From: an uncultured Acidimicrobiales bacterium
GTDB taxonomy: Bacteria > Actinomycetota > Acidimicrobiia > Acidimicrobiales > CAVXTF01
Reading direction: 5' to 3'
Assembly: GCA_963701375.1 (NCBI GenBank)
Contig: CAVOZT010000005.1
Location: 393,601 to 457,600 of the forward strand
Length of the DNA stretch: 64,000 nt
The notes under the pieces: model-generated
The model's database searches: none
Seen by the model: the letters and a program-made list of their open reading frames with translations, nothing else
Told to the model about the DNA's origin: nothing
Shown: positions 13,288 through 58,389 of the stretch, one piece after another
Layout of the letters: each line of letters starts with the position of its first letter
Position numbering within the stretch: position 1 is the stretch's first letter
Program-made: the position numbers and the translations under genes

Positions 13288-15021
13288 GTGGCCCGTGACG
13301 GCCGGATCGATTGGTGGCCAGTGCCATTTCTTGACTCCCACCCCGTCTGCGCCGCACTTCTCGATCCCCCAGCGGGCGGCTTCTTGCTCCTGGCACCCAA
13401 CACTCCCTACGAGGTTGACCGCGCATATATTCCAGGGACCACTGTCTTGCACAGTACCTATCGCACCGCAGGGGGTGCGGTTGAGGTCGTTGACTCTCTG
13501 AATGTCGGTACTTCCGGCCCTCTGCCATGGACCGAGCTTGCGCGTCGAGTTCGTGGGTCTGAAGGCCAGGTCGAGATGACCTGGGAGTTTGTCCCGGGAA
13601 CGCGCTTCGGCGAAGCAGAACCTCGGTGTGAATGCCGTGCTGGCATTCCACTTGCTTTCATCGATGACGTCTGTCTCGCGGTGCTGACAGACCGCCTAGA
13701 GCAAGTCCAGATCGACACGGGCGCGATACGCGGCGAATTCTTGGTCAGAGCGGACGATGACGTCCTTCTCGCAATTGTTGCCAGCAGGAGCGAGCCGGTG
13801 TTCATTCCCCCCATTTCAACGATTAACGCACGGATCGAAAGGACAATCGCTACGTGGCGTAGATGGACCGAGCACATCGAACATAACGGGGACTGGGAAC
13901 ATTGGGTCGTGCGTTCGGCTCTGACTTTGAAGACCCTGCTTTGTGAACCCTCCGATGCCATTGCCGCTGCCGGCACAACCTCCCTCCCAGAACGAATCGG
14001 AGGTGACAAGAATTGGGACTACCGCTTTGCTTGGGTACGTGACTCGTCATTCACCGTCAACGCACTGATCAACCTCGAACTGCACGAGGAGGTTCACGCT
14101 GCGGTCTCCTGGCTTCTAGCTGCGATCAAACGCTCTCGCCCGGATTTACGTGTCTTCTACACCTTGGCGGGGACCGCCGCAGGGCCGTCGTCGACGCTCG
14201 ATGCTCCCGGATACCGAGGCAGCCAACCGGTACGGCGCGGCAACGACGCCGCACGCCAACGACAACTTGGAAACTATGGCGACCTGTTCGACACGATCTT
14301 TCGCTATACCGAATCCGGTCATCTCATCGACAAGGACAGCGCTCAGTGCCTGTGCGAACTCGCCGACCGCTGCTGCGAGAATTGGCGGAAGAAGGACTCC
14401 GGAATCTGGGAGCTGTCAAAACGCCGGCACTACACCATCTCCAAGATTGCCTGCTGGGTCGCTCTCGATCGAGCCACTCGTTTGGCTCGAGCAGGACAAC
14501 TGCCGCCTGACCAAGAACAGCGTTGGCAACGCGAAGCGGACGAGATCCACCAATGGATTCTCGAACACTGCTGGTCCGACACCCTCCATGCCTACACGTT
14601 CTATGCGGACAACGACCAACTCGACGCCTCGGTTCTGTTAGCGGGGCGAACAGGCTTCGATTGCGGCCCCCGTCTCTCGAGCACAATCGACGTCATCACC
14701 GACCAGCTCGGAATCCCAGGCACACCCCTCCTGTATCGCTACACCGGAATGGACCAAGAGGAGGGCGCATTTGTCGCCTGCACGTTCTGGGTCGTCGACG
14801 CTCTCGCACGGACCGGCCAGCTGGATCGAGCTCGCGACCTGATGAACCAGGCCGTAGCCATCTGCAATGAACTCGGCCTTCTCTCCGAACAGGTCGACCC
14901 CACTGACAACTCGTTCCTCGGAAACTTCCCCCAGGGCCTATCCCACCTATCTCTCATCAACGCTGCTGCGACGCTGTCGCGGGCCGGTTCGAGTACCGCA
15001 GCATCAGCCGTACTTTCGTAG
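13288..15021 (+). CDS. glycoside hydrolase family 15 (glucoamylase/trehalase-like)
   Basis: 577 aa. Contains DGRIDWWPVPFLDS, NWDYRFAWVRDSSF, VRRGNDAARQRQLGNYGDLFD, RHYTISKIACWVALDR, EEGAFVACTFWVVDAL and FPQGLSHLSLINAA. In-frame homology (VRSFVPIADYAVLGDGRSIALVA) extends upstream of the GTG at 13288; see the finding at 13192..13290. Confidence 0.85.
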   Translation: MARDGRIDWWPVPFLDSHPVCAALLDPPAGGFLLLAPNTPYEVDRAYIPGTTVLHSTYRTAGGAVEVVDSLNVGTSGPLPWTELARRVRGSEGQVEMTWEFVPGTRFGEAEPRCECRAGIPLAFIDDVCLAVLTDRLEQVQIDTGAIRGEFLVRADDDVLLAIVASRSEPVFIPPISTINARIERTIATWRRWTEHIEHNGDWEHWVVRSALTLKTLLCEPSDAIAAAGTTSLPERIGGDKNWDYRFAWVRDSSFTVNALINLELHEEVHAAVSWLLAAIKRSRPDLRVFYTLAGTAAGPSSTLDAPGYRGSQPVRRGNDAARQRQLGNYGDLFDTIFRYTESGHLIDKDSAQCLCELADRCCENWRKKDSGIWELSKRRHYTISKIACWVALDRATRLARAGQLPPDQEQRWQREADEIHQWILEHCWSDTLHAYTFYADNDQLDASVLLAGRTGFDCGPRLSSTIDVITDQLGIPGTPLLYRYTGMDQEEGAFVACTFWVVDALARTGQLDRARDLMNQAVAICNELGLLSEQVDPTDNSFLGNFPQGLSHLSLINAAATLSRAGSSTAASAVLS

Positions 15022-48207: not shown

Positions 48208-50153
48208 GTGCCCGTGACTCTGCGCATCGAGGACTACGGGATCATCGGCGACACCCACACCGCCGGCCTCGTCGGTCGAAACGGCTCGATCGACTGGCTG
48301 TGCCTGCCGCGATTCGACTCCGACGCCTGCTTCGCGAACCTCCTCGGATCAGAGGAGAACGGCTACTGGCAGATCGCCCCTTCCGAGCCCGTGCTAACGA
48401 CCACACGCAGGTACCGAGACGACACGCTCGTCCTCGAGACCGAGTTCACGACTGCGGGCGGGACCGTCAGGATCACCGACTGCATGCCGATCCGCGAGAA
48501 CCATCCCGAGGTGATCCGGTTGGTCGAAGGCGTTAAGGGCACAGTCGCGATGCGCATGTGCCTCGCCATCCGGATGGGTTACGGCTGCACAGTTCCGTGG
48601 GTGAGATACCAGGACGGGCTTCTCACGGCGATCGCGGGTCCTGACGCCCTCGCGCTGTGGACCCCGGTCACCACGCGTGGCGAGGATTTCCAGACCCTCG
48701 CGGACTTCACGGTCACCGAGGGCCATGGGATCCCGTTCATCCTCACCTGGTACCCGTCGCACGAACCGGCCCCTCGCCCGACTGACGCACGATTCTCCAT
48801 CGCCGACACGGTCTCGTGGTGGGAGGGTTGGTCCGCGCTCTGCACGATCCAAGGGGAGTACCGACCCGCGGCGCTCCGCTCACTCATCACGTTGAAGGCG
48901 CTCACGTACGAACCGACCGGAGGCATCGTCGCGGCCGCGACGACCTCGCTACCCGAGACTCTCGGAGGAGTGCGGAACTGGGACTACCGATACTGCTGGC
49001 TCCGCGACGCCACGCTGACGCTTGCCGCTTTGATCCGCGGGGGATACCACGAAGAAGCGATGGCGTGGCGTGACTGGCTTCTTCCGCGGTTGCCGGCAAC
49101 ACGTCTGAGCTTCAGATCATGTACGGGCCCGCCGGCGAGCGGAGGCTCGACGAATGGGAGGTCGACTGGCTGGCCGGCTATGAGGGGTCCAAGCCGGTGC
49201 GCATCGGAAACGCCGCGGCGGGCCAGTACCAACTCGACGTCTACGGCGAGGTGATGGCAGCACTCTTCCAGGCCGCACGTGTGGGCGACATGCCGTCGGC
49301 ACCGGCGTGGGATCTGCAGAAGTCGCTCATGAACTTCCTCGAGACCGGCTGGAAGGAACCGGACGACGGCATCTGGGAGGTGCACGGCCCGCGCCGGCAC
49401 TTCACTCACTCCAAGATGATGGCCTGGGTGGCGGTCAACCGTGCCGTGCGTTCGGTCGAAGAGTTCGGGCTCGATGGACCGGTCGACAAGTGGCGCAACA
49501 TACGTGCCGCGATCCACGACGAGGTTCTCGAGAAGGGATACAACTCCAAGGTCGGAGCCTTCACCCAGTACTACGGCTCGGACGCGCTCGACGCAAGCTT
49601 GTTGATGATGCCGCTCTTCGGATTCCTGCCGGCCACCGATCAACGGGTCAGATCGACGATCGAGAAGATAGAGAAGGATCTGACGGAGGACGGATTCGTC
49701 CTTCGCTACCGAGCGGAGGAGGCGAGCCAGGTCGACGGGCTGAGCGGTCGCGAGGGAGCGTTCATCGCCTGCTCGTTCTGGATGGCTGACTGCCTCGGCA
49801 TGATCGGGCGCACCGAAGACGCGCGCACACTCTTCGAGCGGCTGTTGGGTTTGCGCAACGACCTGGGGTTGCTCGCAGAGGAGTACGACGCCGTCGCGCA
49901 ACGACAAGTCGGCAATTTCCCTCAGGCTTTCTCACACGTGTCGCTCGTGAACGCCGCCTGCAACCTGAGCGGTCAAACGCTCGAAGACCTGGTCCCGAGC
50001 CCGGACATCGTCCAGGCTGTGCGACGGTCGATGCGGGGCAACCGGGGCTTGTCACGGAGTCGCCTGTTCATGCCGGCCAAGCGCCAGCGCGAGAAGTACC
50101 CCGACCGCTCGTCTAGGGATCGCACGACGAGCAAAAGGAGGTCCGAAGGATGA
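48208..50153 (+). pseudogene. glycoside hydrolase family 15 (second copy), frameshifted near 49083
   Basis: ORF 48208..49254 (IEDYGIIGDTHTAGLVGRNGSIDWLCLPRFDS...NWDYRYCWLRDATL...WRDWLL) loses homology. ORF 49119..50153 plus its in-frame upstream codons continue AVAGNTSELQIMYGPAGERRLDEWEVDWLAGYEGSKPVRIGNAAAGQYQLDVYGE...FPQAFSHVSLVNAA. Confidence 0.8.
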
Positions 50154-51207: not shown

Positions 51208-52140
51208 ATGCCCACGACTCTCATTGCACCCGGGATAACTCAGATCGACACTCTCCTCGGCGGCTGGGAGCGGATGACGGCGGGGTACCTGGTGGACGGG
51301 GACGCACCGCTTCTGATCGAGACGGGTAGCCAGAGCTCGGTCCCCGTGCTTTTGGAGGCGCTTGCCGAGCTCGGGGTCTCGCCGGGCGAGCTGGCAGGGG
51401 TCGCGGTGACCCATATCCACCTCGACCACGCCGGCGGTGTCGGCGACGTGTCACGCGTGTTTCCCTCCGCGACCGTGTACGTGCACGAGAAAGGTGCGCG
51501 TCACCTGGTTGACCCGACACGGCTCGTGGACTCGGCGAGCAGGGTCTACGGCTCTCTTCTCGACTCGCTCTACGGCAGGCTCGATCCGACTCCCGCCGAA
51601 CGGATCCACGTTCTCGCCGACGGGGAAGAGATCCGCACCGGCAGCGACCACGTCCTCACCACCGTCGATTCCCCCGGGCACGCGAAGCACCATCTGGCGC
51701 TCCACGACTCGGCAAGTGGGATCCTCTTCGCAGGGGACGCCGTCGGAGTCCGGCTCCCCGACGCTGGGGTGCTCCGGCCGGCGACTCCTCCTCCCGACTT
51801 CGACCTCGATCAGGCGGTCAACTCGTTGCACCGATTCGCGCAACGCCATCCGACCGGTCTTGCGCTGGCGCACTACGGGCTCGTGGGCGACGCCGAGCCT
51901 GTCCTGGTCGAAGCAGAGCAGACGCTTCGCGCGTGGGCAGAGGTGGCGGAGCAGGCTTGGAAGTCTGGAAGGGATATCGCGACCGCGTTGGCGGAGTCGT
52001 TCGCAACCGATTATTCGGCGCTCGACTCAGCCGAGCGTTCGAAGCTCGAGACCCTGAACGGCGTGCACTCGAACGCTGCGGGCTTCCGCAGATGGTTGGA
52101 GAAACGCTCGACCGATGGAGCTCAGGAAGTCAGCGTGTAA
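51208..52140 (+). CDS. MBL-fold metallo-hydrolase
   Basis: ATG at 51208 inside ORF 50626..52140. Contains VAVTHIHLDHAGGVGD (HxHxDH), SPGHAKHH and AGDAVG. Confidence 0.8.
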   Translation: MPTTLIAPGITQIDTLLGGWERMTAGYLVDGDAPLLIETGSQSSVPVLLEALAELGVSPGELAGVAVTHIHLDHAGGVGDVSRVFPSATVYVHEKGARHLVDPTRLVDSASRVYGSLLDSLYGRLDPTPAERIHVLADGEEIRTGSDHVLTTVDSPGHAKHHLALHDSASGILFAGDAVGVRLPDAGVLRPATPPPDFDLDQAVNSLHRFAQRHPTGLALAHYGLVGDAEPVLVEAEQTLRAWAEVAEQAWKSGRDIATALAESFATDYSALDSAERSKLETLNGVHSNAAGFRRWLEKRSTDGAQEVSV

Positions 52141-55100
52141 GTGGTCGACGCAGCCACCGTGTGCGAGTGAGGAACCTTCGCGACGACGGTGTGCGCGCCG
52201 GGTGCACCTGCCACGCGGAGCCCGCGAATATGACCGATGCAGCTGAACGTTCCGTCGCTCCCGACCGTCGCAGTGCAGATCTTGAATCTCGGCTTCGTCG
52301 GCACGCCCGTCTTGTAGATGATCTTCACGCTCGTCCCCGGGGTGAAACCTTCTCCTAACACGGTGACCTTGGTGCGGGGTGGACCTGTCGAAGGGGAGAT
52401 CACGAGCTTTATTCCGGTCACCGTGAGGTCGGCGACTCCGAGCACGCCCGAGGACGTGTCAGTGGCGGTGACGACGACGTCACCTGTTGCGACGCCGGTG
52501 GCGACGCCCTGTGAGCCCGCGGCGTTGGAGATCGTGGCGTCGCCGGTGTTCGAGGTAGACCAGGTGACCGAGTCCGTGATGTTCCGGGTGCTCAGGTCCG
52601 AGTAGTGGCCCGTCGCGGTGAACTGCTTCGACCCGTGCAGTGCGACCGAAGCCTGTGTGGGCGAAACCGTTATCGCCAACAGCACGGCAGGCAAGACGGT
52701 CACCACGGCCGTCCCGTTCAGAACAGACGATGTGTCGGTGGCGGTGATCGTGGCGACACCGGTCCCGACGCCCGTCACCTCACCCTGTGAGCCGACGGAG
52801 TTAGAGACGGAAGCAACCGATGTGTCCGACGACGACCAGGTGACTACATCGGTGAGGTCCTTGGTGGTCCCGTCGGAGTAGTGACCCGTCGCGCTGAACG
52901 GCTGCGTCTCGCCGTTGGGTACTGACGCTGCTGTCGGCGAAACGGTGACGGCGACGAGCACGGCGGGGAGCACCGTCACCACGGCCGTCCCGTTCAGAAG
53001 CGAGGAGGGGTCGGTGGCGGTGATGGTCGCCGCTCCGGTACCCGTCCCGGTGACGAGTCCCTTTGACCCCGAGCTGTTGGAGACGGTCGCGACCGACGTA
53101 TCAGACGACGACCAGGTCACCACGTCGGTCAGGTCTTGAGTGGTCCCGTCGGAGTAATGACCGGTTGCCGTGAATTGCTGAGTCTCGCCGTTGGGCACGG
53201 AGGCGGCCAAGGGTGAAACCGTCACCGCGACGAGCACGGCGGGAAGAACCGTGACGACCGCGGTCCCGTTCAGAACAGACGATGGGTCGGTGGCGGTGAT
53301 GGTCGCTGCTCCGGTACCCGTCCCGGTGACGAGTCCCTGCGACCCCGAGTTGTTCGAGACCGTCGCGACCGACGTGTCAGACGACGACCACGTGACGACG
53401 TCTGTCAGGTTCTTCGAGCTCAGGTCGGAGTAGTGCCCGGTGGCGGTGAGCTGTGTGGTCTTGCCATTGGCCACCGAAGCCGTCAAAGGCGAAACGGTGA
53501 CCGCCACGAGCACGGCGGGAAGAACCGTGACGACCGCGGTCCCGTTCAGAACAGACGACGGATCGGTGGCGGTGATGGTCGCTGCTCCGGTACCCGTCCC
53601 TGTGACGAGTCCCTGTGAGCCCGCGCTGTTGGAGACGGTCGCGACCGACGTGTCAGACGACGACCACGTGACGACGCCTGTCAGGTTCTGAGTGCTCAGG
53701 TCGGAGTAATGGCCGGTCGCCGTGAACTGCTGCGTCTCGCCATCGGGTACGGACGCGGCCGTCGGCGACACGGTTATCGCCAATAGAACGGCGGGGAGAA
53801 CGGTCACGACGGCCGTGCCGTTCACCAGTGACGACGGATCGGTAGCGGTTATGGTCGCCCCCCCGGTGCCCGTGCCGGTCACCTCACCCTGGGAGCCTGA
53901 GGTGTTCGAGACCGTGGCGATCGTGGGGTCGGAGGTCGACCAGGTGACGACGTCGGTCAGGTCCTTCGTGGTCGCATCGGAGTAGTGACCGGTGGCGAGG
54001 AACGGGGCTGACTCTCCTACGGGGACCGAGGCTGCCAAAGGAGAGACGGTGATCGCGACCAAGACTGCGGGGAGAACGGTTACGATTGCCGTACCGTTCA
54101 AAAGGGAAGACGGGTCGGTTGCCGTGATCGTTGCGGCCCCCGTCCCGACTCCGGTAACCAATCCTTGCGAGCCGGACGCGTTCGACACGGTCGCTGCGGT
54201 CGTGTCGGACGACGACCAGGTGACGGTATCGGTGAGATCCTTGGTCGTCCCGTCCGAGTAGCGGCCTGTGGCGGTGAGTTGCTCGGATTCTCCGCTCGGC
54301 ACGGATGCCGCAACGGGTGAGACCGTGACTGCGATAAGCACCGCGGGGAGAACCGTCACGAGTGCCGTACCGCTCGAAAGGGATGACGGGTCGGTTGCGG
54401 TGATGGTCGCTGCGCCCGTACCAGTGGCGGTGACCAGTCCTTGCGAGCCGGATGCGTTCGAAACTGTGGCGACCGAGGTGCTCGACGACGACCAGGTCAC
54501 CGTCGAGGTCAGGTCGCTCGTGGTTCCGTCGGAGTAGTGACCTGTCGCCGTGAACTGATGGTTCTCACCATTGGGCACTGATGCAGCCGCGGGCGACACC
54601 GTGACCGCGACGAGAACAGCGGGGAGAACGGTGACCAAGGCAGTTCCACTGAGTAGCGACGACGGGTCGGTGGCGGTGATGGTCGCCGCGCCGGTACCCG
54701 TTGCCGTGACGTGCCCCTGCGAACCCGACGCGTTGGAGACCGTCGCGATGGAAGTGCTCGAGGACGACCACGTCACTGCGGACGTCAGGTCGGACGTCGC
54801 CCCGTCGGAGTAGTGGCCGGTTGCAGCGAACGGAAGAGTGTCGCCGTTCGGTATCGACGTGGCCGGCGGCGAAACCGTGACCGCCACGAGAACAGCGGGG
54901 AGAACGGTGACTAGGGCAGTTCCACTGAGTAGCGACGACGGGTCGGTGGCGGTGATCGTCGCAGCCCCGGTTCCCGTGGCGGTGACCAGTCCCTGCGATC
55001 CCGAAGCGCTGGAGACGGTCGCGACGGAAGTGCTCGACGACGACCACGTGACGGAGTTCGTGAGGTTGAGCGTGCTCAGGTCGGAGTAGTGGCCCGTTGC

Positions 55101-56666
55101 AGTGAACTGCTGGGTCTCTCCTTTCGGGACCGACGCTGCCGTCGGCGACACGGTTACGGCGACGAGAACGGCCGGCAGCACCGTCACCGCGGCCGTCCCG
55201 TTCAACAGCGACGAGGGGTCGGTTGCGGTGATAGTCGTCGCGCCTGTACCCGTGGCGGTGACGAGTCCGTGCGATCCCGAAGTGTTGGAGACGGTGGCAA
55301 CCGTTGTGCTCGAGGACGACCACGTGACGGAGTTCGTGAGGTTGAGCGTGCTCAGGTCCGAGTAGTGGCCCGTCGCGGTGAACTGCTGGGTCTCGCCCTT
55401 CGGAACCGACGCCGCCGTCGGCGACACGGTTACGGCGACCAGAACGGCCGGCAGCACGGTGACGGCGGCCGTTCCGTTCAACAGCGACGAGGGGTCGGTT
55501 GCGGTAATGGTGGCCCCGCCGGTACCCGTAGCGGTGACGAGTCCCTGCGATCCCGAGGCGTTGGAGACGGTGGCAACCGTTGTGCTCGACGACGACCACG
55601 TGACCGTGCCAGTCAGGTTCTGGGTCGTCGCGTCCGAGTAATGACCCGTTGCGGTGAACTGCTGGGTCTCGCCCTTAGGAACCGACGCCGCCGTCGGCGA
55701 CACGGTTACGGCGACCAGAACGGCCGGCAGCACGGTGACGGCGGCCGTTCCGTTCAACAGCGACGAGGGGTCGGTTGCTGTAATGGTCGTCGCGCCCGCC
55801 CCGGTTGCCGTCACGAGTCCCTGGGAGCCAGAGGAGTTGGAGACGGATGCCACAGAATTGCTCGAGGACGACCACGTGACCGTGTTCGTGAGGTTCTGAG
55901 TGGTCGCATTCGAGTAGTTACCCGTGGCGGTGAACTGCTGAGTCTCGCCTTTGGGCACGGAGGCTGCGGTCGGCGACACGGTGACTGCGACAAGGACGGC
56001 GGGGATCACGGTCGCAACGGCGGTACCGAATACCGACCCGACGGTGGCAGTGATCGTTGCGACACCTGTCCCGACGGCGGTTGCCTGGCCCTGCGAACCG
56101 GATGCGTTGGAGACCGTGGCAACCGTTGTGCTCGACGACGACCAGGTGACGTTGCTCGTGAGGTTCTGCGTGCTCAGGTCGGAGTAATGCCCGGTTGCGA
56201 GGAACGCCGCGGACTCGCCGAGCGGAATGGACGCGGCCGCGGGTGAAACCGTGATCGTGAGAAGCACGGCGGGGAGCACGGTCATAGCCGCCGTGCCGGA
56301 TACTGCAGTCCCTTCGGCGGCGGTGATCGTGGCCACCCCGGTTCGGATCGCAGTGGCCAGTCCCTGCGATCCGGTCGTGTTCGACACCGTCGCGACCGAC
56401 GAGCTCGAGGTTGACCAGGTGGCGGTGTTCGTGATGTTCTGCGTGCTCAGGTCGGAGTAGTGCCCGGTAGCGGTGAACTGCTCGGTCTCGCCGATCGGCA
56501 CGGACGCAGTGGTCGGCGAGACGGTTATCGACAACAGGATCGGGCTTCCGAGCGCTGTTGCCGGCACCACACTTGCTGCAATCGCAGTCAGCGCCGCCAA
56601 CACCGCCATGACGACGAGCAGCAAACGACCGCCCACTTTTCGCGGCCCCGCCAGGTGCGTCCCCAT
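52122..56666 (-). CDS. secreted giant protein: signal peptide + 15 tandem Big_2 (bacterial Ig-like) repeats + C-terminal IPT/TIG-like domain
   Basis: 1514 aa. The N-terminus is RKVGGRLLLVVMAVLAALTAIAASVVPATALG. There are 15 units of ~92 aa of the form VTVSPxxASVPxGETQQFTATGHYSD(L/G)(S/T)TxxLTxxVTWSSSxTSVATVSNxSGSQGLVTGTGTGAATITATDPSSxLNGTAVVTVLPAVLVA. The tail is KLVISPSTGPPRTKVTVLGEGFTPGTSVKIIYK... No LPXTG motif or C-terminal TM helix was seen. Confidence 0.85.
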   Translation of the reverse strand: MGTHLAGPRKVGGRLLLVVMAVLAALTAIAASVVPATALGSPILLSITVSPTTASVPIGETEQFTATGHYSDLSTQNITNTATWSTSSSSVATVSNTTGSQGLATAIRTGVATITAAEGTAVSGTAAMTVLPAVLLTITVSPAAASIPLGESAAFLATGHYSDLSTQNLTSNVTWSSSSTTVATVSNASGSQGQATAVGTGVATITATVGSVFGTAVATVIPAVLVAVTVSPTAASVPKGETQQFTATGNYSNATTQNLTNTVTWSSSSNSVASVSNSSGSQGLVTATGAGATTITATDPSSLLNGTAAVTVLPAVLVAVTVSPTAASVPKGETQQFTATGHYSDATTQNLTGTVTWSSSSTTVATVSNASGSQGLVTATGTGGATITATDPSSLLNGTAAVTVLPAVLVAVTVSPTAASVPKGETQQFTATGHYSDLSTLNLTNSVTWSSSSTTVATVSNTSGSHGLVTATGTGATTITATDPSSLLNGTAAVTVLPAVLVAVTVSPTAASVPKGETQQFTATGHYSDLSTLNLTNSVTWSSSSTSVATVSSASGSQGLVTATGTGAATITATDPSSLLSGTALVTVLPAVLVAVTVSPPATSIPNGDTLPFAATGHYSDGATSDLTSAVTWSSSSTSIATVSNASGSQGHVTATGTGAATITATDPSSLLSGTALVTVLPAVLVAVTVSPAAASVPNGENHQFTATGHYSDGTTSDLTSTVTWSSSSTSVATVSNASGSQGLVTATGTGAATITATDPSSLSSGTALVTVLPAVLIAVTVSPVAASVPSGESEQLTATGRYSDGTTKDLTDTVTWSSSDTTAATVSNASGSQGLVTGVGTGAATITATDPSSLLNGTAIVTVLPAVLVAITVSPLAASVPVGESAPFLATGHYSDATTKDLTDVVTWSTSDPTIATVSNTSGSQGEVTGTGTGGATITATDPSSLVNGTAVVTVLPAVLLAITVSPTAASVPDGETQQFTATGHYSDLSTQNLTGVVTWSSSDTSVATVSNSAGSQGLVTGTGTGAATITATDPSSVLNGTAVVTVLPAVLVAVTVSPLTASVANGKTTQLTATGHYSDLSSKNLTDVVTWSSSDTSVATVSNNSGSQGLVTGTGTGAATITATDPSSVLNGTAVVTVLPAVLVAVTVSPLAASVPNGETQQFTATGHYSDGTTQDLTDVVTWSSSDTSVATVSNSSGSKGLVTGTGTGAATITATDPSSLLNGTAVVTVLPAVLVAVTVSPTAASVPNGETQPFSATGHYSDGTTKDLTDVVTWSSSDTSVASVSNSVGSQGEVTGVGTGVATITATDTSSVLNGTAVVTVLPAVLLAITVSPTQASVALHGSKQFTATGHYSDLSTRNITDSVTWSTSNTGDATISNAAGSQGVATGVATGDVVVTATDTSSGVLGVADLTVTGIKLVISPSTGPPRTKVTVLGEGFTPGTSVKIIYKTGVPTKPRFKICTATVGSDGTFSCIGHIRGLRVAGAPGAHTVVAKVPHSHTVAASTTYTLTS
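52420..56530. repeat. 276-bp tandem repeat array (15 copies) inside the Big_2 gene
   Basis: The periodicity is visible in antisense shadow ORFs spaced exactly 276 nt apart (55102, 55378, 55654). Units 4-6 are near-identical over their first two thirds. Confidence 0.85.
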
Positions 56667-56857
56667 TCCCCCTACCTCCTGTGCTGATCGCCACTTTTCC
56701 CCGTAAAAAGACTTACGAAACTAAAGTTCTTTAATAGTCGGAGACAAACCTCCGGATCCATTCGGAGATGGTTCAGGTGGGGAAGAATCGAGTAGGTGAA
56801 GCTAAGTGACTCCTCAATTTTGAGGAGGAGAACGATCCGTCGAGGAGGGAGCATGCG

Positions 56858-57307
56858 ATGACCGATCCACACGAAACGGCGAGAGACATAGCCGAGGCGC
56901 GTGCGAGGCTTCTGGCGTTTGCTCGAGGATGTTCAGCGGAGCAATGGTGCTCGAGCCCGCTCGGTGACGCAGATCCCCGCTCCGTTTCTGTGATCGTCGA
57001 CCATGTCGCAGACGCGTACGACTACATCGCCGGGTGGCTGCGAGCACTCGTTGGCGGCGCCGCGCTCGAGGTGAACTCGGACATGGTGGACGAGTTGAAC
57101 GCGAAGCACGCGAGCGGCGCTGCAGTGATAGATCGCGACGAGGTGAGCGCGCACCTGCAAACCAGTGGTGACGCTTTGATCGGGTTCATCGAGGAGCTCG
57201 AGCCCGATGACCTCGTCATCGAGAACGGGCGCGTCCAACGCCTTGCGGAGATCGCAGCGCGCCACGCTGACGGCCACAGATCAGAGCTCGAGGCCGCCTT
57301 CGGTTGA
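56858..57307 (+). CDS. DinB-like / mycothiol-maleylpyruvate-isomerase N-terminal domain protein
   Basis: 149 aa, four-helix pattern. Candidate metal ligands are SVIVDHVADAYDYIAGWL and AARHADGHRSELEAA. The family call is moderate. Confidence 0.55.
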   Translation: MTDPHETARDIAEARARLLAFARGCSAEQWCSSPLGDADPRSVSVIVDHVADAYDYIAGWLRALVGGAALEVNSDMVDELNAKHASGAAVIDRDEVSAHLQTSGDALIGFIEELEPDDLVIENGRVQRLAEIAARHADGHRSELEAAFG

Positions 57308-57461: not shown

Positions 57462-58389
57462 TCAGCGGAGCGGCTCGTACCGGACGTCAGTCAGCTCCTC
57501 CGAGATCTCCCACAGGCGCCTGGCGGTATCGCGATTCCTTGCCGCTCTGACGAAATGCACCTGCTTCGGATATCCGCGCATTCCGAAGAGTTGATCCGGC
57601 CCGTAGTACCGGGCGCCCGCGACGTCGGGGGAGGTGGCGGCATACAGGGCCGGAAGAGCACCCATCGCCGCAGTCTGCGCAAAGACCGCGTTCTCCAGGT
57701 TGGTCACCTTCTCCATGATCTTCGACCCGCTCATCTGAGGCCCGACACCCTGCAGGTTGGTCGCGGCGTAGCCGGGATGAGCGGCGACGCTCACGATGTC
57801 TTTGGATGAAACCCTCCTGTCGAGCTCGAGGGTGAAGAGTTGGTTCGCGAGCTTGGACTGGGCGTAGGCGGTCCACTTTCCATAGCGTCTCTGTCCCTGC
57901 AGGTCGTCGAACCTGATGCGTCCTATCCTCGCGACCTCACTGGAGATCGTGACGACCCGGGCACCGGGTCGCGCGATCAGCCTGTCTACAAGCAACCCGG
58001 TGAGCGCGAAGTGACCGAGGTGGTTGGTGCCGAACTGCATCTCGAAGCCGTCGGCGGTCTCGCGAACGCGGGATGGCCATCACCCCCGCGTTGTTCAAGA
58101 GGATGTCGAGACCCTCATACCCGGCGGAGAATTCCGCAGCGAAGGTGCGTACCGAAGCCAGATCGGAGAGATCGAGATGTTCGAGGCGCACGTCCGAGCC
58201 CGGCGCACTCTCGAGGATCCGTTTCACGGCGGCATCGCCCTTTGCCTGGTCTCGGCACGCCAGCACGACGCGCGCACCGGCTGTCGCCAAAGCGAGTGAT
58301 GCTTCGAACCCGAGACCGCTGTTCGCCCCGGTGACGAGAGCGGTGCGGCCTTTTTGATCCGGGATGTCCTTTGTGGTCCACCGTGCCAT
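57462..58389 (-). pseudogene. short-chain dehydrogenase/reductase (SDR), frameshifted near 58060
   Basis: ORF 57937..58389 (TALVTGANSGLGFEASLALATAGARVVLACR...LLNNAGVMAIP) is followed in another frame by RVRETADGFEMQFGTNHLGHFALTGLL...YAQSKLAN (ORF 57462..58040). The lesion looks like one C missing from a C-run. Confidence 0.8.

Follow-up and report, generated by a model that had tools for sequence, protein, structure and literature searches.

How might a very long, apparently exported protein be held on a cell when it carries none of the familiar anchors? This question is raised by a gene in a 64-kb stretch of DNA (the window) from an uncultured member of the Acidimicrobiales, which a sequence-only reading had described as encoding a giant secreted protein of 15 Big_2 repeats with no recognisable anchor. 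Here we describe the gene, its repeats, its two termini and its family, and we weigh several ways in which the product could be placed at the cell surface.

The gene and its upstream region

The gene (52122..56666, minus strand) was delimited from the ORF list, from an identical protein in public collections (P0001) and from a start that is conserved in orthologs, where the ATG codon and the N-terminus MGTHL are both kept. It forms a single, intact frame of 1514 codons followed by a stop codon at 52122-52124, and it is the longest ORF of the window, as had been claimed. We conclude that this is a real, intact gene, the product of which is predicted to be exported and rod-shaped.

The intergenic region upstream (56667..56857), which also borders a divergent DinB_2 gene, had been singled out as an unusually AT-rich stretch of about 190 bp, and this proved correct: its GC content of 49.7% is lower than that of any other 191-bp stretch of the window (mean 62.7%, sd 4.1%). 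A strong Shine-Dalgarno sequence (AGGAGG) lies upstream of the gene at 56675-56680, and the final ~45 nt of the region, including this site, are conserved in comparison with the L003 ortholog. Rfam (0 matches) and folding (z -0.68) gave no sign that the AT-rich leader contains a riboswitch or other regulatory RNA, and this reading was rejected. A scan made for other than actinobacterial promoters returned neither a sigma-70 consensus nor an intrinsic terminator.

A stalk of 15 diverged Big_2 units

Fifteen stretches of the protein matched Big_2 (Pfam PF02368; E 6.5e-176, 571 bits against a gathering cut-off of 22.8), and neither Pfam nor NCBIfam returned a further family on the whole protein or on its terminal domain. 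Matches of KH_GLD-3, PDGLE and ArsN1b to the whole protein were rejected as repeat-driven noise with zero independent stretches. The head-to-tail unit length of 92 aa reported earlier holds for 13 units but not for unit 1 (91 aa) and unit 2 (90 aa); TRF gave a period of 276 bp, 13.9 copies and 77% matches. From the N-terminus, the array consists of the divergent units 1-2 (residues 42-222; 56001..56543, minus strand), units 3-8 or the 'SSS' block (residues 223-774; 54345..56000, minus strand), units 9-14 or the 'SSD' block (residues 775-1326; 52689..54344, minus strand), both blocks being set by pairwise unit comparison, and the divergent unit 15 (residues 1327-1418; 52413..52688, minus strand), which adjoins the C-terminal domain (CTD). 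The stalk is acidic, and Thr and Ser make up 34% of its composition.

An AlphaFold2 model of unit 15 together with the CTD (pLDDT 93.7) showed two domains separated by a 2-residue linker, with the Big_2 unit folded as an Ig-like beta-sandwich. The closest solved structures in Foldseek were the Big_2 domains of LigA and LigB; the model matched LigB12 (2mog) with 42% identity, a TM of 0.79 (target-normalised) and an rmsd of 2.3, and LigA (8gyr) was matched at E 1.4e-13. The Pfam profile upholds the assignment of 15 Big_2 units, and the model of unit 15 upholds their Ig-like fold.

The description of the repeats as near-identical, and of units 4-6 as almost identical in DNA, did not survive comparison. 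Across all unit pairs, DNA identity was 59-88% (mean about 70%) and protein identity 51-92%, and no two units had an in-register exact DNA match longer than 54 bp; units 4-6 showed DNA identities of 88% (4/5), 85% (5/6) and 81% (4/6). Units 3-8 shared 73-92% protein and 71-88% DNA identity among themselves, and units 11-13 had a mutual DNA identity of 82-86%. Protein identity to the other units was 56-72% for units 1-2 and 51-63% for unit 15. Nine of the 14 adjacent pairs reached at least 80% protein identity, with a maximum DNA identity of 88%. The segments PxGETQQF, D(L/G)(S/T)T and SSS/SSD do vary, as had been noted; however, variation is not confined to them, since columns 39-40, 55-56, 62-68 and 81-87 of the unit alignment vary too.

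Age and turnover of the repeats

Between units, pS was 0.25-0.77 and pN 0.05-0.35, giving a pN/pS of about 0.1-0.3. The youngest unit pairs had a pS of 0.25-0.29 and most pairs 0.4-0.7, values comparable to the pS of 0.46-0.59 against the nearest relative, which represents species-level divergence. Because pS is near saturation while pN is low, the units are old copies under purifying selection; i.e., the repeats are old and diverged rather than fresh. Selection on the gene had been proposed on the grounds that it stayed intact among pseudogenes; the proposal holds on the basis of pN/pS, not on that argument.

Unit 1 was nearest to unit 1 of the orthologs (74-76% identity) and not to its own paralogs, and unit 15 shared 76% protein identity with its counterpart at the end of the L003 array. 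Each of units 3-8 was nearer to some paralog than to any ortholog unit, and the same analysis was applied to units 9-14. These comparisons indicate that the end units are positionally orthologous, and that the internal units are paralog-like, having been amplified or homogenised in each lineage. Stalk length therefore varies, as internal units would be slowly gained, lost and homogenised lineage by lineage; the range of DNA identity and the near-saturated synonymous sites point to turnover on a species-level scale. The earlier suggestion of recent expansion or concerted evolution is accordingly half right: even the lowest pS values are too high for a recent event, whereas the internal units do show a lineage-specific, concerted-like pattern.

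Repeats are classic assembly traps, and the source assemblies of this clade carry single-base frameshifts; both points speak for a collapsed or expanded, mis-assembled array, or for a decaying gene that happens to be open. We consider this very improbable. A 4.5-kb open frame with such a pN/pS is not a product of chance, and the orthologs share architecture and locus. In addition, the units differ by 12-41% at the DNA level and have only short exact runs in common; therefore, the earlier worry over a collapsed or wrong copy number is largely removed.

Locus and family

The gene occupies a fixed position in the order F420H2 quinone reductase, SRPBCC, SDR, the Big_2 gene, MBL, glucose dehydrogenase, GH15, CvpA/trypsin and bPH_2, which is kept in four Acidimicrobiales genomes (the window, L003, L017 and L018). 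The orthologs at this locus, which belong to different species, contain 15, 11, 13 and 11 units, respectively, and unit number across the family is 8-19. A partner, anchor or secretion gene nearby was ruled out, the neighbours being metabolic and conserved regardless. Of 8000 candidate proteins scored in a homolog search, 4360 reached E <= 1e-10; among the best 120 of these, long Big_2 arrays predominated, and the named entries belonged to several phyla. The host probably lives in soil, like its closest relatives.

The window had been called pseudogene-rich, a view that the Pfam scan contradicts: 18 of the 20 large ORFs scanned cover their profiles end to end, and among the neighbours only GH15 (around 49085-49131) and SDR (around 58064-58069) are broken, by a single 1-bp frameshift each. 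Since the broken genes differ from one related assembly to the next, these frameshifts may reflect assembly indels.

The predicted signal peptide

Residues 1-38 (56553..56666, minus strand) have the layout of a signal peptide, in which a basic n-region is followed by a 20-residue hydrophobic core and P-A-T-A, with cleavage predicted before L39. Residues 15-34 form the hydropathy maximum of the whole protein. An AxA or small-x-small motif lies 2-4 residues ahead of unit 1 in all 12 family members that we compared for cleavage site, anchors and charge. Processing at A38|L39 is the likely outcome judged from these features, and the predicted signal peptide, together with the 15 Big_2 units, supports the claim of a giant secreted protein.

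A terminal Ig-like domain related to TIG domains

The CTD (residues 1419-1514, 96 aa; 52125..52412, minus strand) was defined by its model, a CTD profile, Foldseek and charge. It was modelled as a 7-strand Ig-like sandwich (pLDDT 95.2). The only two cysteines of the protein, Cys 1464 and Cys 1476, form one pair within it, the first 1463 residues being Cys-free. The domain has a net charge of +9; across the family, CTDs carry +5 to +17 as opposed to -22 to -92 in the repeat regions, and both this polarity and the location at the extreme C-terminus were seen in 12 of 12 members.

The terminal domain had been called IPT/TIG-like. Pfam did not make this call directly, as it assigned no family to the CTD, TIG (PF01833) included, even at E <= 10, but the profile and the fold do connect the two. 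The CTD profile matched Pfam-called TIG stretches over its full length (i-E 1e-6 to 1e-12), and the matched stretches coincide (1269-1351 vs 1272-1347 in P0140; 311-396 vs 314-394 in P0184). Foldseek placed the CTD with neocarzinostatin-family proteins (TM, query-normalised, 0.66-0.74), the NF-kB IPT domain (about 0.6) and MG domains. Comparison with PDB sequences gave only weak similarities to the Ig superfamily, neocarzinostatin and plexin IPT. A word-indexed homolog search with the CTD alone retrieved 2 fragments only, and a profile search found more. The model and profile thus indirectly support the CTD being an Ig-like domain homologous to TIG domains.

All 6 representatives of the high-scoring CTD subfamily have the domain at their extreme C-terminus, and the subfamily also occurs behind unrelated passengers, namely a Vgb-lyase-type propeller (P0199) and a repeat region that by eye looks RCC1-type (P0281). 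More distant CTD relatives on other proteins, e.g., on P0199, are not cationic; therefore, the positive charge characterises this clade rather than the domain type as such. Outside the orthologs, neither the window nor 20 fetched loci contained a further CTD copy, and the Big_2 proteins of Planctomycetota and Acidobacteriota in the fetched loci are without a CTD.

Possible modes of surface retention

The claim that the protein has no recognisable anchor was confirmed and extended: none of the 12 family members has an LPXTG-type or other sortase motif, a lipobox or a C-terminal hydrophobic helix. In this protein, the last 60 residues contain no sortase motif and reach a maximum 19-residue hydropathy of 0.67, and Pfam found no anchor domain or recognised adhesive domain but only Big_2. 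GW modules of Listeria InlB and Ami, which are basic and C-terminal, are proposed to hold their proteins non-covalently on anionic wall polymers.

The best explanation overall, which we favour with some reserve, is that of an exported Big_2 stalk with a cationic CTD cap, forming a fibrillar adhesin-like or Lig-like surface fibre held by the CTD. The protein would be exported by Sec and processed by signal peptidase to a monomer in which 15 Big_2 domains, arranged end to end, probably form a long, extended stalk, capped at its C-terminus by the small, disulfide-bearing, strongly cationic, TIG-related Ig-like domain. The stalk would act as a spacer, leaving the CTD as the only candidate binding module; the CTD may bind anionic polymers of the producer's own envelope and so retain the protein non-covalently, in the way proposed for the GW modules of InlB, with the acidic stalk pointing outward from the cell. 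The family is fixed at a single chromosomal position in a group of uncultured Acidimicrobiales, and its end modules, comprising units 1-2 and 15 together with the CTD, show position-by-position conservation. The GW comparison is a functional analogy only, given that the fold is SH3-like in GW modules and Ig-like in the CTD, and that binding by the CTD is a proposal. Against it, we count the non-cationic CTDs of more distant relatives and the absence of a conserved neighbour that would point to a partner. The CTD might just as well be a distal ligand-binding tip or an oligomerisation domain, and the hydrophobic core could serve as the membrane anchor instead.

The latter arrangement would give the polarity of Lig or intimin: an uncleaved N-terminal segment would act as a tether in the cytoplasmic membrane, with the stalk crossing the wall and the cationic CTD as the distal tip, for which anionic polysaccharide, mineral, eDNA or another cell would be candidate ligands. 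We regard this as unlikely, if worth keeping in view. The hydrophobic core has membrane-spanning length, orthologs conserve the n-region MGTHL.G.R to an unusual degree and the structural matches are to LigA and LigB. However, immediately ahead of unit 1, all 12 family members keep a Pro at -4 to -6 and then small-x-small, the hallmark of signal peptidase I cleavage, and actinobacterial signal peptides are typically long. Moreover, there is no linker between the hydrophobic segment and unit 1; therefore, a tethered first domain would sit directly on the membrane. Lig, intimin and invasin, which do set a precedent for the tether, are anchored N-terminally and have their functional end at the C-terminus (PMC7821625; PMC8286594).

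Alternatively, the protein could be released and form a matrix or biofilm scaffold, or an S-layer-like lattice or sheath, through self-association of the CTD. The lack of a known anchor in all 12 members would suit this model, and the strong Shine-Dalgarno sequence and AT-rich upstream region are compatible with high expression. In addition, Foldseek matched S-layer Ig arrays (SbsC, EA1 and Haloferax csg; E about 1e-5 to 1e-6), and the NF-kB IPT domains matched by the CTD fold are dimerisation domains. The S-layer matches, however, reflect generic similarity among tandem Ig folds (TM 0.3-0.4), lattices are not typically built from linear rods of 15 domains, and the variable unit number is better suited to a spacer than to a lattice of fixed geometry. 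We therefore consider release distinctly unlikely, and we retain the CTD-held fibre as our working explanation.

Comparison with known repeat proteins

Lig proteins are N-terminally lipidated; the lipobox Cys that anchors them is absent from all 12 members of the present family. Leptospira LigA and LigB resemble our protein in their tandem ~90-aa Big_2 domains (12-13 in Lig), very short linkers and elongated fibre, and LigB likewise has a non-repeat C-terminal extension (PMC7821625), although this comprises 772 aa as compared with the single 96-aa TIG-like CTD here. Lig domains are only moderately identical to one another (PMC7821625), whereas adjacent internal units here share 76-92%. Lig proteins are outer-surface proteins of pathogenic spirochaetes that bind host matrix, in contrast to the uncultured Acidimicrobiales host here. 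Orthology to ligA, ligB or ligC was ruled out, as the similarity is at the domain level only (25-42% identity) and the source and its relatives are Acidimicrobiales.

With fibrillar adhesin-like proteins, our protein shares a signal peptide and, behind it, many tandem copies of a known stalk domain; Big_2 is named as one (PMC8286594). The missing anchor, which had seemed remarkable, is not so within this class, about half of which lack a known one (Monzon et al. 2021, PMC8286594). The usual layout in Gram-positive phyla places an adhesive domain at the N-terminus and a sortase anchor at the C-terminus (PMC8286594); here, by contrast, there is no recognised adhesive domain or sortase motif, and the sole non-stalk module is C-terminal. 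Of the LPXTG-type motif, hydrophobic helix and basic tail that end sortase-anchored Gram-positive proteins, the motif and the helix are absent.

Periscope Proteins are defined by tandem repeats >50 aa with at least 80% identity (PMC8201768), and in them, high DNA identity drives rapid recombination between strains, coupled with cell-surface attachment (Whelan et al. 2021, PMC8201768; PMC9704523). Our protein shares the rod of tandem domains >50 aa and a repeat number that differs among homologs (11-15 at the locus, 8-19 in the family), but differs in its lower DNA identity (59-88%), its slow turnover and the lack of a known attachment motif. Similarly, the CTD resembles IPT/TIG (PF01833) and neocarzinostatin-type domains in its 7-strand sandwich and full-length profile matches, yet it falls below the Pfam TIG threshold, and its subfamily is strictly C-terminal, with a conserved pair of hairpin cysteines and, within the present clade, strong positive charge. 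Taken as a whole, this is a fibrillar adhesin-like, Lig-like protein, and nothing out of the ordinary among bacterial surface or adhesin-like proteins.

Significance

The gene adds a well-defined family of Ig-repeat surface fibres, syntenic, variable in stalk length and under purifying selection, from a poorly known order of uncultured actinobacteria. Its C-terminal Ig-like module has no Pfam assignment, and its conserved position and charge make it a candidate anchoring domain; with so many fibrillar adhesin-like proteins lacking a known anchor, such a domain would be useful to identify. More speculatively, this Cys-paired, TIG-like terminal domain might be an undescribed module for non-covalent retention or sorting in Acidimicrobiales, used by secreted proteins with passengers as unrelated as Big_2 stalks, a Vgb-lyase-type propeller and an RCC1-like propeller (the last judged by eye), an idea to which we give only a small chance. 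If it were true, the CTD would play the part that SLH, GW or WxL domains play elsewhere, and it would help to explain how 'anchorless' fibrillar proteins are retained on cells. Apart from this family and its terminal module, the gene is a routine case of the very common Big_2-array architecture.

Architecture of the Big_2 gene

The Big_2 gene, at 52122..56666 (-), is a single open frame of 1514 codons with an ATG start and an AGGAGG sequence eight bases upstream of it; it is the longest ORF of the whole 64-kb window, as the sequence-only reading had held. A Pfam search of the whole protein returned 15 Big_2 stretches (571 bits, E 6.5e-176), confirming the proposed domain assignment, and beyond Big_2 there was no credible match in Pfam and no further domain in NCBIfam. 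Tandem Repeats Finder (TRF) detected a period of 276 bp in the gene, with 13.9 copies and 77% matches. Units were delimited by splitting at the conserved T(V/I)SP motif and are numbered from the N-terminus; their lengths were 91, 90 and then 13 x 92 residues, preceded by a 41-residue leader and followed by a 96-residue non-repeat C-terminal domain (CTD). Because the ORF, the Pfam stretches, the TRF period and the unit split agree, the layout described earlier (leader, 15 Big_2 units and terminal domain) is real. Antisense to the gene, at 52318-56706 (+), we observed periodic ORFs of 75-95 aa, one per unit, with GC3 of 0.80-0.86; we attribute these to the repeat itself and to shared third codon positions, with no evidence of genes.

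The 191-bp upstream intergenic region is a divergent promoter region common to the Big_2 gene and a DinB_2 gene. Its GC content was 49.7% against 62.7 +/- 4.1%, the most AT-rich stretch in the window, as had been noticed; an AT-rich intergenic region is normal in a high-GC genome. The last ~45 nt, with the Shine-Dalgarno sequence, were kept in the related locus L003, and no RNA-structure signal, Rfam match, sigma-70 consensus or terminator was found in the region.

Synteny and state of the locus

The exact sequence of the window protein occurs once in public data, where its contig measures 557 kb. A genome scan found a syntenic ortholog with 67% identity in L003 (uncultured Acidimicrobiales MAG MFD05512.bin.2.148), and contig look-ups found orthologs in L017 (P0004, 68% identity, 13 units) and L018 (P0060, from an Acidimicrobiales bacterium MAG, 11 units). 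All four loci, including the window, share the order F420H2 quinone reductase, SRPBCC, SDR and the Big_2 gene, followed by MBL hydrolase, glucose dehydrogenase, GH15, CvpA/trypsin and bPH_2. The Big_2 gene thus belongs stably to the chromosome rather than to an island. The gap between the SDR and Big_2 genes is a variable slot, holding the DinB_2 ORF in the window (56858-57307, +) and a Pyridox_ox_2 gene with a 366-aa secreted PPC-domain protein in L003 (8113-9828), and empty in L017 and L018.

The window had been called pseudogene-rich; however, 18 of the 20 large ORFs covered Pfam profiles end to end, and two genes carried one frameshift each. The GH15 glucoamylase/trehalase-like gene (48208..49254 + 49119..50153, +) has a 1-bp deletion near 49.09 kb (~49085-49131), and the SDR gene (57937..58389 + 57462..58040, -) has a 1-bp insertion near 58.07 kb (~58064-58069); both were otherwise 81-83% identical to intact orthologs. 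In L003, one of the Nanopore MAGs of Microflora Danica (PMC12313526), GH15 and SDR were intact, yet the Big_2 gene contained two frameshifts. The glucose dehydrogenase and GH15 genes were fragmented in L017, and all genes of the locus, GH15 and SDR included, were intact in L018. Because related long-read assemblies break different genes, this pattern of random, assembly-specific single-base indels suggests that consensus errors are a better fit than gene decay.

A second, intact GH15 paralog lies at 13288-15021 (+), with 35% identity to the frameshifted one. The window also shows a step in base composition, from 57-62% GC in the first ~26 kb (1-26000) to 61-68% GC at 26001-64000. The genes on the low-GC side appear intact (GH43, MR/MLE enolase, TPP enzyme, GMC oxidoreductase, GH15, Mrp antiporter and luciferase-like monooxygenase), and the step may reflect acquisition of this region or a join in the assembly.

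Divergence and evolution of the repeat array

The units had been described as near-identical, with units 4-6 almost identical in DNA. When all units were compared, DNA identity was only 59-88% and protein identity, which was systematically higher, 51-92%; units 4/5, 5/6 and 4/6 shared 88%, 85% and 81% DNA identity, respectively. The longest exact in-register DNA match between two units was 54 bp. Assembly collapse is therefore no serious concern, and it is unlikely that the repeat array is an assembly artefact. Units 5 (about 55169-55444) and 15 (52413-52688) shared a 40-bp exact in-register match, yet were 67% identical overall; this may be a small gene-conversion tract.

Nei-Gojobori counts between unit pairs gave pS of 0.25-0.77 (mean 0.57, near saturation) and pN of 0.05-0.35, and dN/dS was about 0.08-0.35 for adjacent pairs, consistent with the earlier suggestion that the gene is under selection. 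The yardstick was the divergence from the closest relative, L003, for which housekeeping genes nearby and the gene's own end modules gave pS of 0.46-0.59. Unit-pair pS was mostly comparable to this divergence, which argues against the recent expansion that had been proposed; only units 4/5 (pS 0.25) and 11/12 (pS 0.29) were clearly younger than the L003 split. The array is old, and purifying selection maintains each unit. Per-site entropy peaked at alignment columns 11, 17, 19-22, 32-36, 39-40, 47-50, 55-56, 62-68 and 81-87. The three variable segments named in the sequence-only reading were all among these peaks, but variability was broader, and most of the peak columns, judged by position, fall between strands in the DSSP assignment of the unit-15 model.

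Each window unit was then compared with all units of five homologs. Unit 1 best matched the first units of the orthologs (74-76%) and unit 15 their last units (up to 76%), whereas each of the internal units 3-14 had its best match within its own protein (82-92%) and reached only 65-75% with any ortholog unit. In the identity matrix the internal units fell into two blocks, 3-8 ("SSS") and 9-14 ("SSD"). This pattern is the mark of end modules that stay fixed while stalk units are amplified or homogenised within each lineage. Concerted evolution had thus been proposed correctly in qualitative terms, with a time scale matching that at which species or genera diverge. The orthologs agree with this in their TRF matches (83% in L003, 80% in L017, below detection in L018). 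In the wider family, the layout of leader, Big_2 units and CTD spans 8-19 units and 880-1813 aa. One metagenome protein from ENA, P0108 (960 aa), has nine Big_2 units virtually identical at the protein level and then a CTD of the same type; therefore, recent amplification occurs in the family, though not in the window gene.

The C-terminal domain

The CTD matched no Pfam family even at E <= 10. An exhaustive search with a profile built from 12 CTDs gave 4712 matching representatives (E <= 0.001); its best-scoring matches were giant proteins in which as many as 73 stretches were hit. These stretches are IPT/TIG by Pfam, with coinciding coordinates (CTD profile 1269-1351 and Pfam TIG 1272-1347 in P0140; 311-396 and 314-394 in P0184). 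AlphaFold2 predicted a seven-strand sandwich (pLDDT 95.2, pTM 0.86). Its matches in the PDB by Foldseek were no more than modest, with E of about 1e-4: query-normalised TM was 0.66-0.74 for neocarzinostatin and macromomycin and about 0.6 for the dimerisation (IPT) domains of NF-kB, and MG domains of complement were also among them. The CTD is therefore IPT/TIG-like by transitive homology and fold only; the earlier label stands in this sense and not as direct Pfam membership.

CTD domain scores were bimodal, separating a true subfamily (58-129 bits) from generic TIG repeats (<=46 bits). In six of six representatives the true subfamily formed the extreme C-terminus, and two of the six are non-Big_2 proteins, in which the domain follows a Vgb-lyase-type beta-propeller (P0199, by Pfam) or a repeat region that looks RCC1-type by eye (P0281). 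The same C-terminal Cys-paired TIG-like domain is present in one or two copies in P0199, P0281 and P0226, a 174-aa two-domain protein, and is not cationic there. The two conserved Cys of the CTD are the sole Cys residues of the window protein. The model places them on two successive strands (44-51 and 57-63 in model numbering; DSSP), roughly equidistant from the connecting loop, a placement that would allow a candidate extracytoplasmic disulfide.

Export, retention and relation to known systems

The absence of a recognisable anchor, reported earlier for the window protein, extended to the family: 12 of 12 members lacked a lipobox and a C-terminal hydrophobic segment, and their last 60 residues contained no sortase motif. 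Close to half of the fibrillar adhesin-like proteins that have been detected lack any known anchor (PMC8286594), and its absence is in itself unremarkable. In all 12 members, the hydrophobic leader ends with Pro and small-x-small, 2-4 residues before unit 1 (PATA|LG, PASA|LG, PAAA|LG and similar), a putative signal peptidase I site; no Tat-like consensus was conserved across them. If the leader were left uncleaved, it would tether the protein to the membrane at its N-terminus and leave the CTD as the distal tip, the polarity found in Lig and intimin; we consider this improbable.

In 12 of 12 full-length members, net charge was -22 to -92 for the repeat region and +5 to +17 for the CTD of about 96 residues, and almost all CTD fragments were also cationic. 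Charge is the single striking conserved property bearing on anchoring. The gene product is an exported, selected, stalk-like Big_2 array with conserved end modules and variable length. It would form an extended fibre, for which generic Ig-domain dimensions suggest roughly 50-60 nm for 16 domains, with the CTD as its probable functional end. In the reading we prefer, the cationic CTD would attach non-covalently to anionic polymers of the producer's envelope, and the acidic stalk would project outward from the cell. The more remote relatives of the CTD, found on other proteins, lack its positive charge, which makes a universal charge-based anchor less likely. A released protein that takes part in a matrix or lattice and self-associates through the CTD seems to us slightly less probable still than the N-terminal tether.

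The nearest solved structures were LigA (8gyr, E 1.4e-13) and LigB12 (2mog, 42% identity); however, membership of the Lig family was ruled out, as the window protein has neither a lipobox nor orthology to Lig. The protein probably also falls outside the Periscope Proteins in the strict sense, given the low DNA identity among its units (59-88%, with nine of 14 adjacent pairs at 80% or more in protein identity) and the lack of a known attachment motif. The window gene is a genuine but ordinary fibrillar adhesin-like or Lig-like protein of an uncultured Acidimicrobiales bacterium. Its single mildly novel element is the CTD, a strictly C-terminal, Cys-paired, cationic, TIG-like domain without Pfam assignment, which is worth considering as a candidate retention module.
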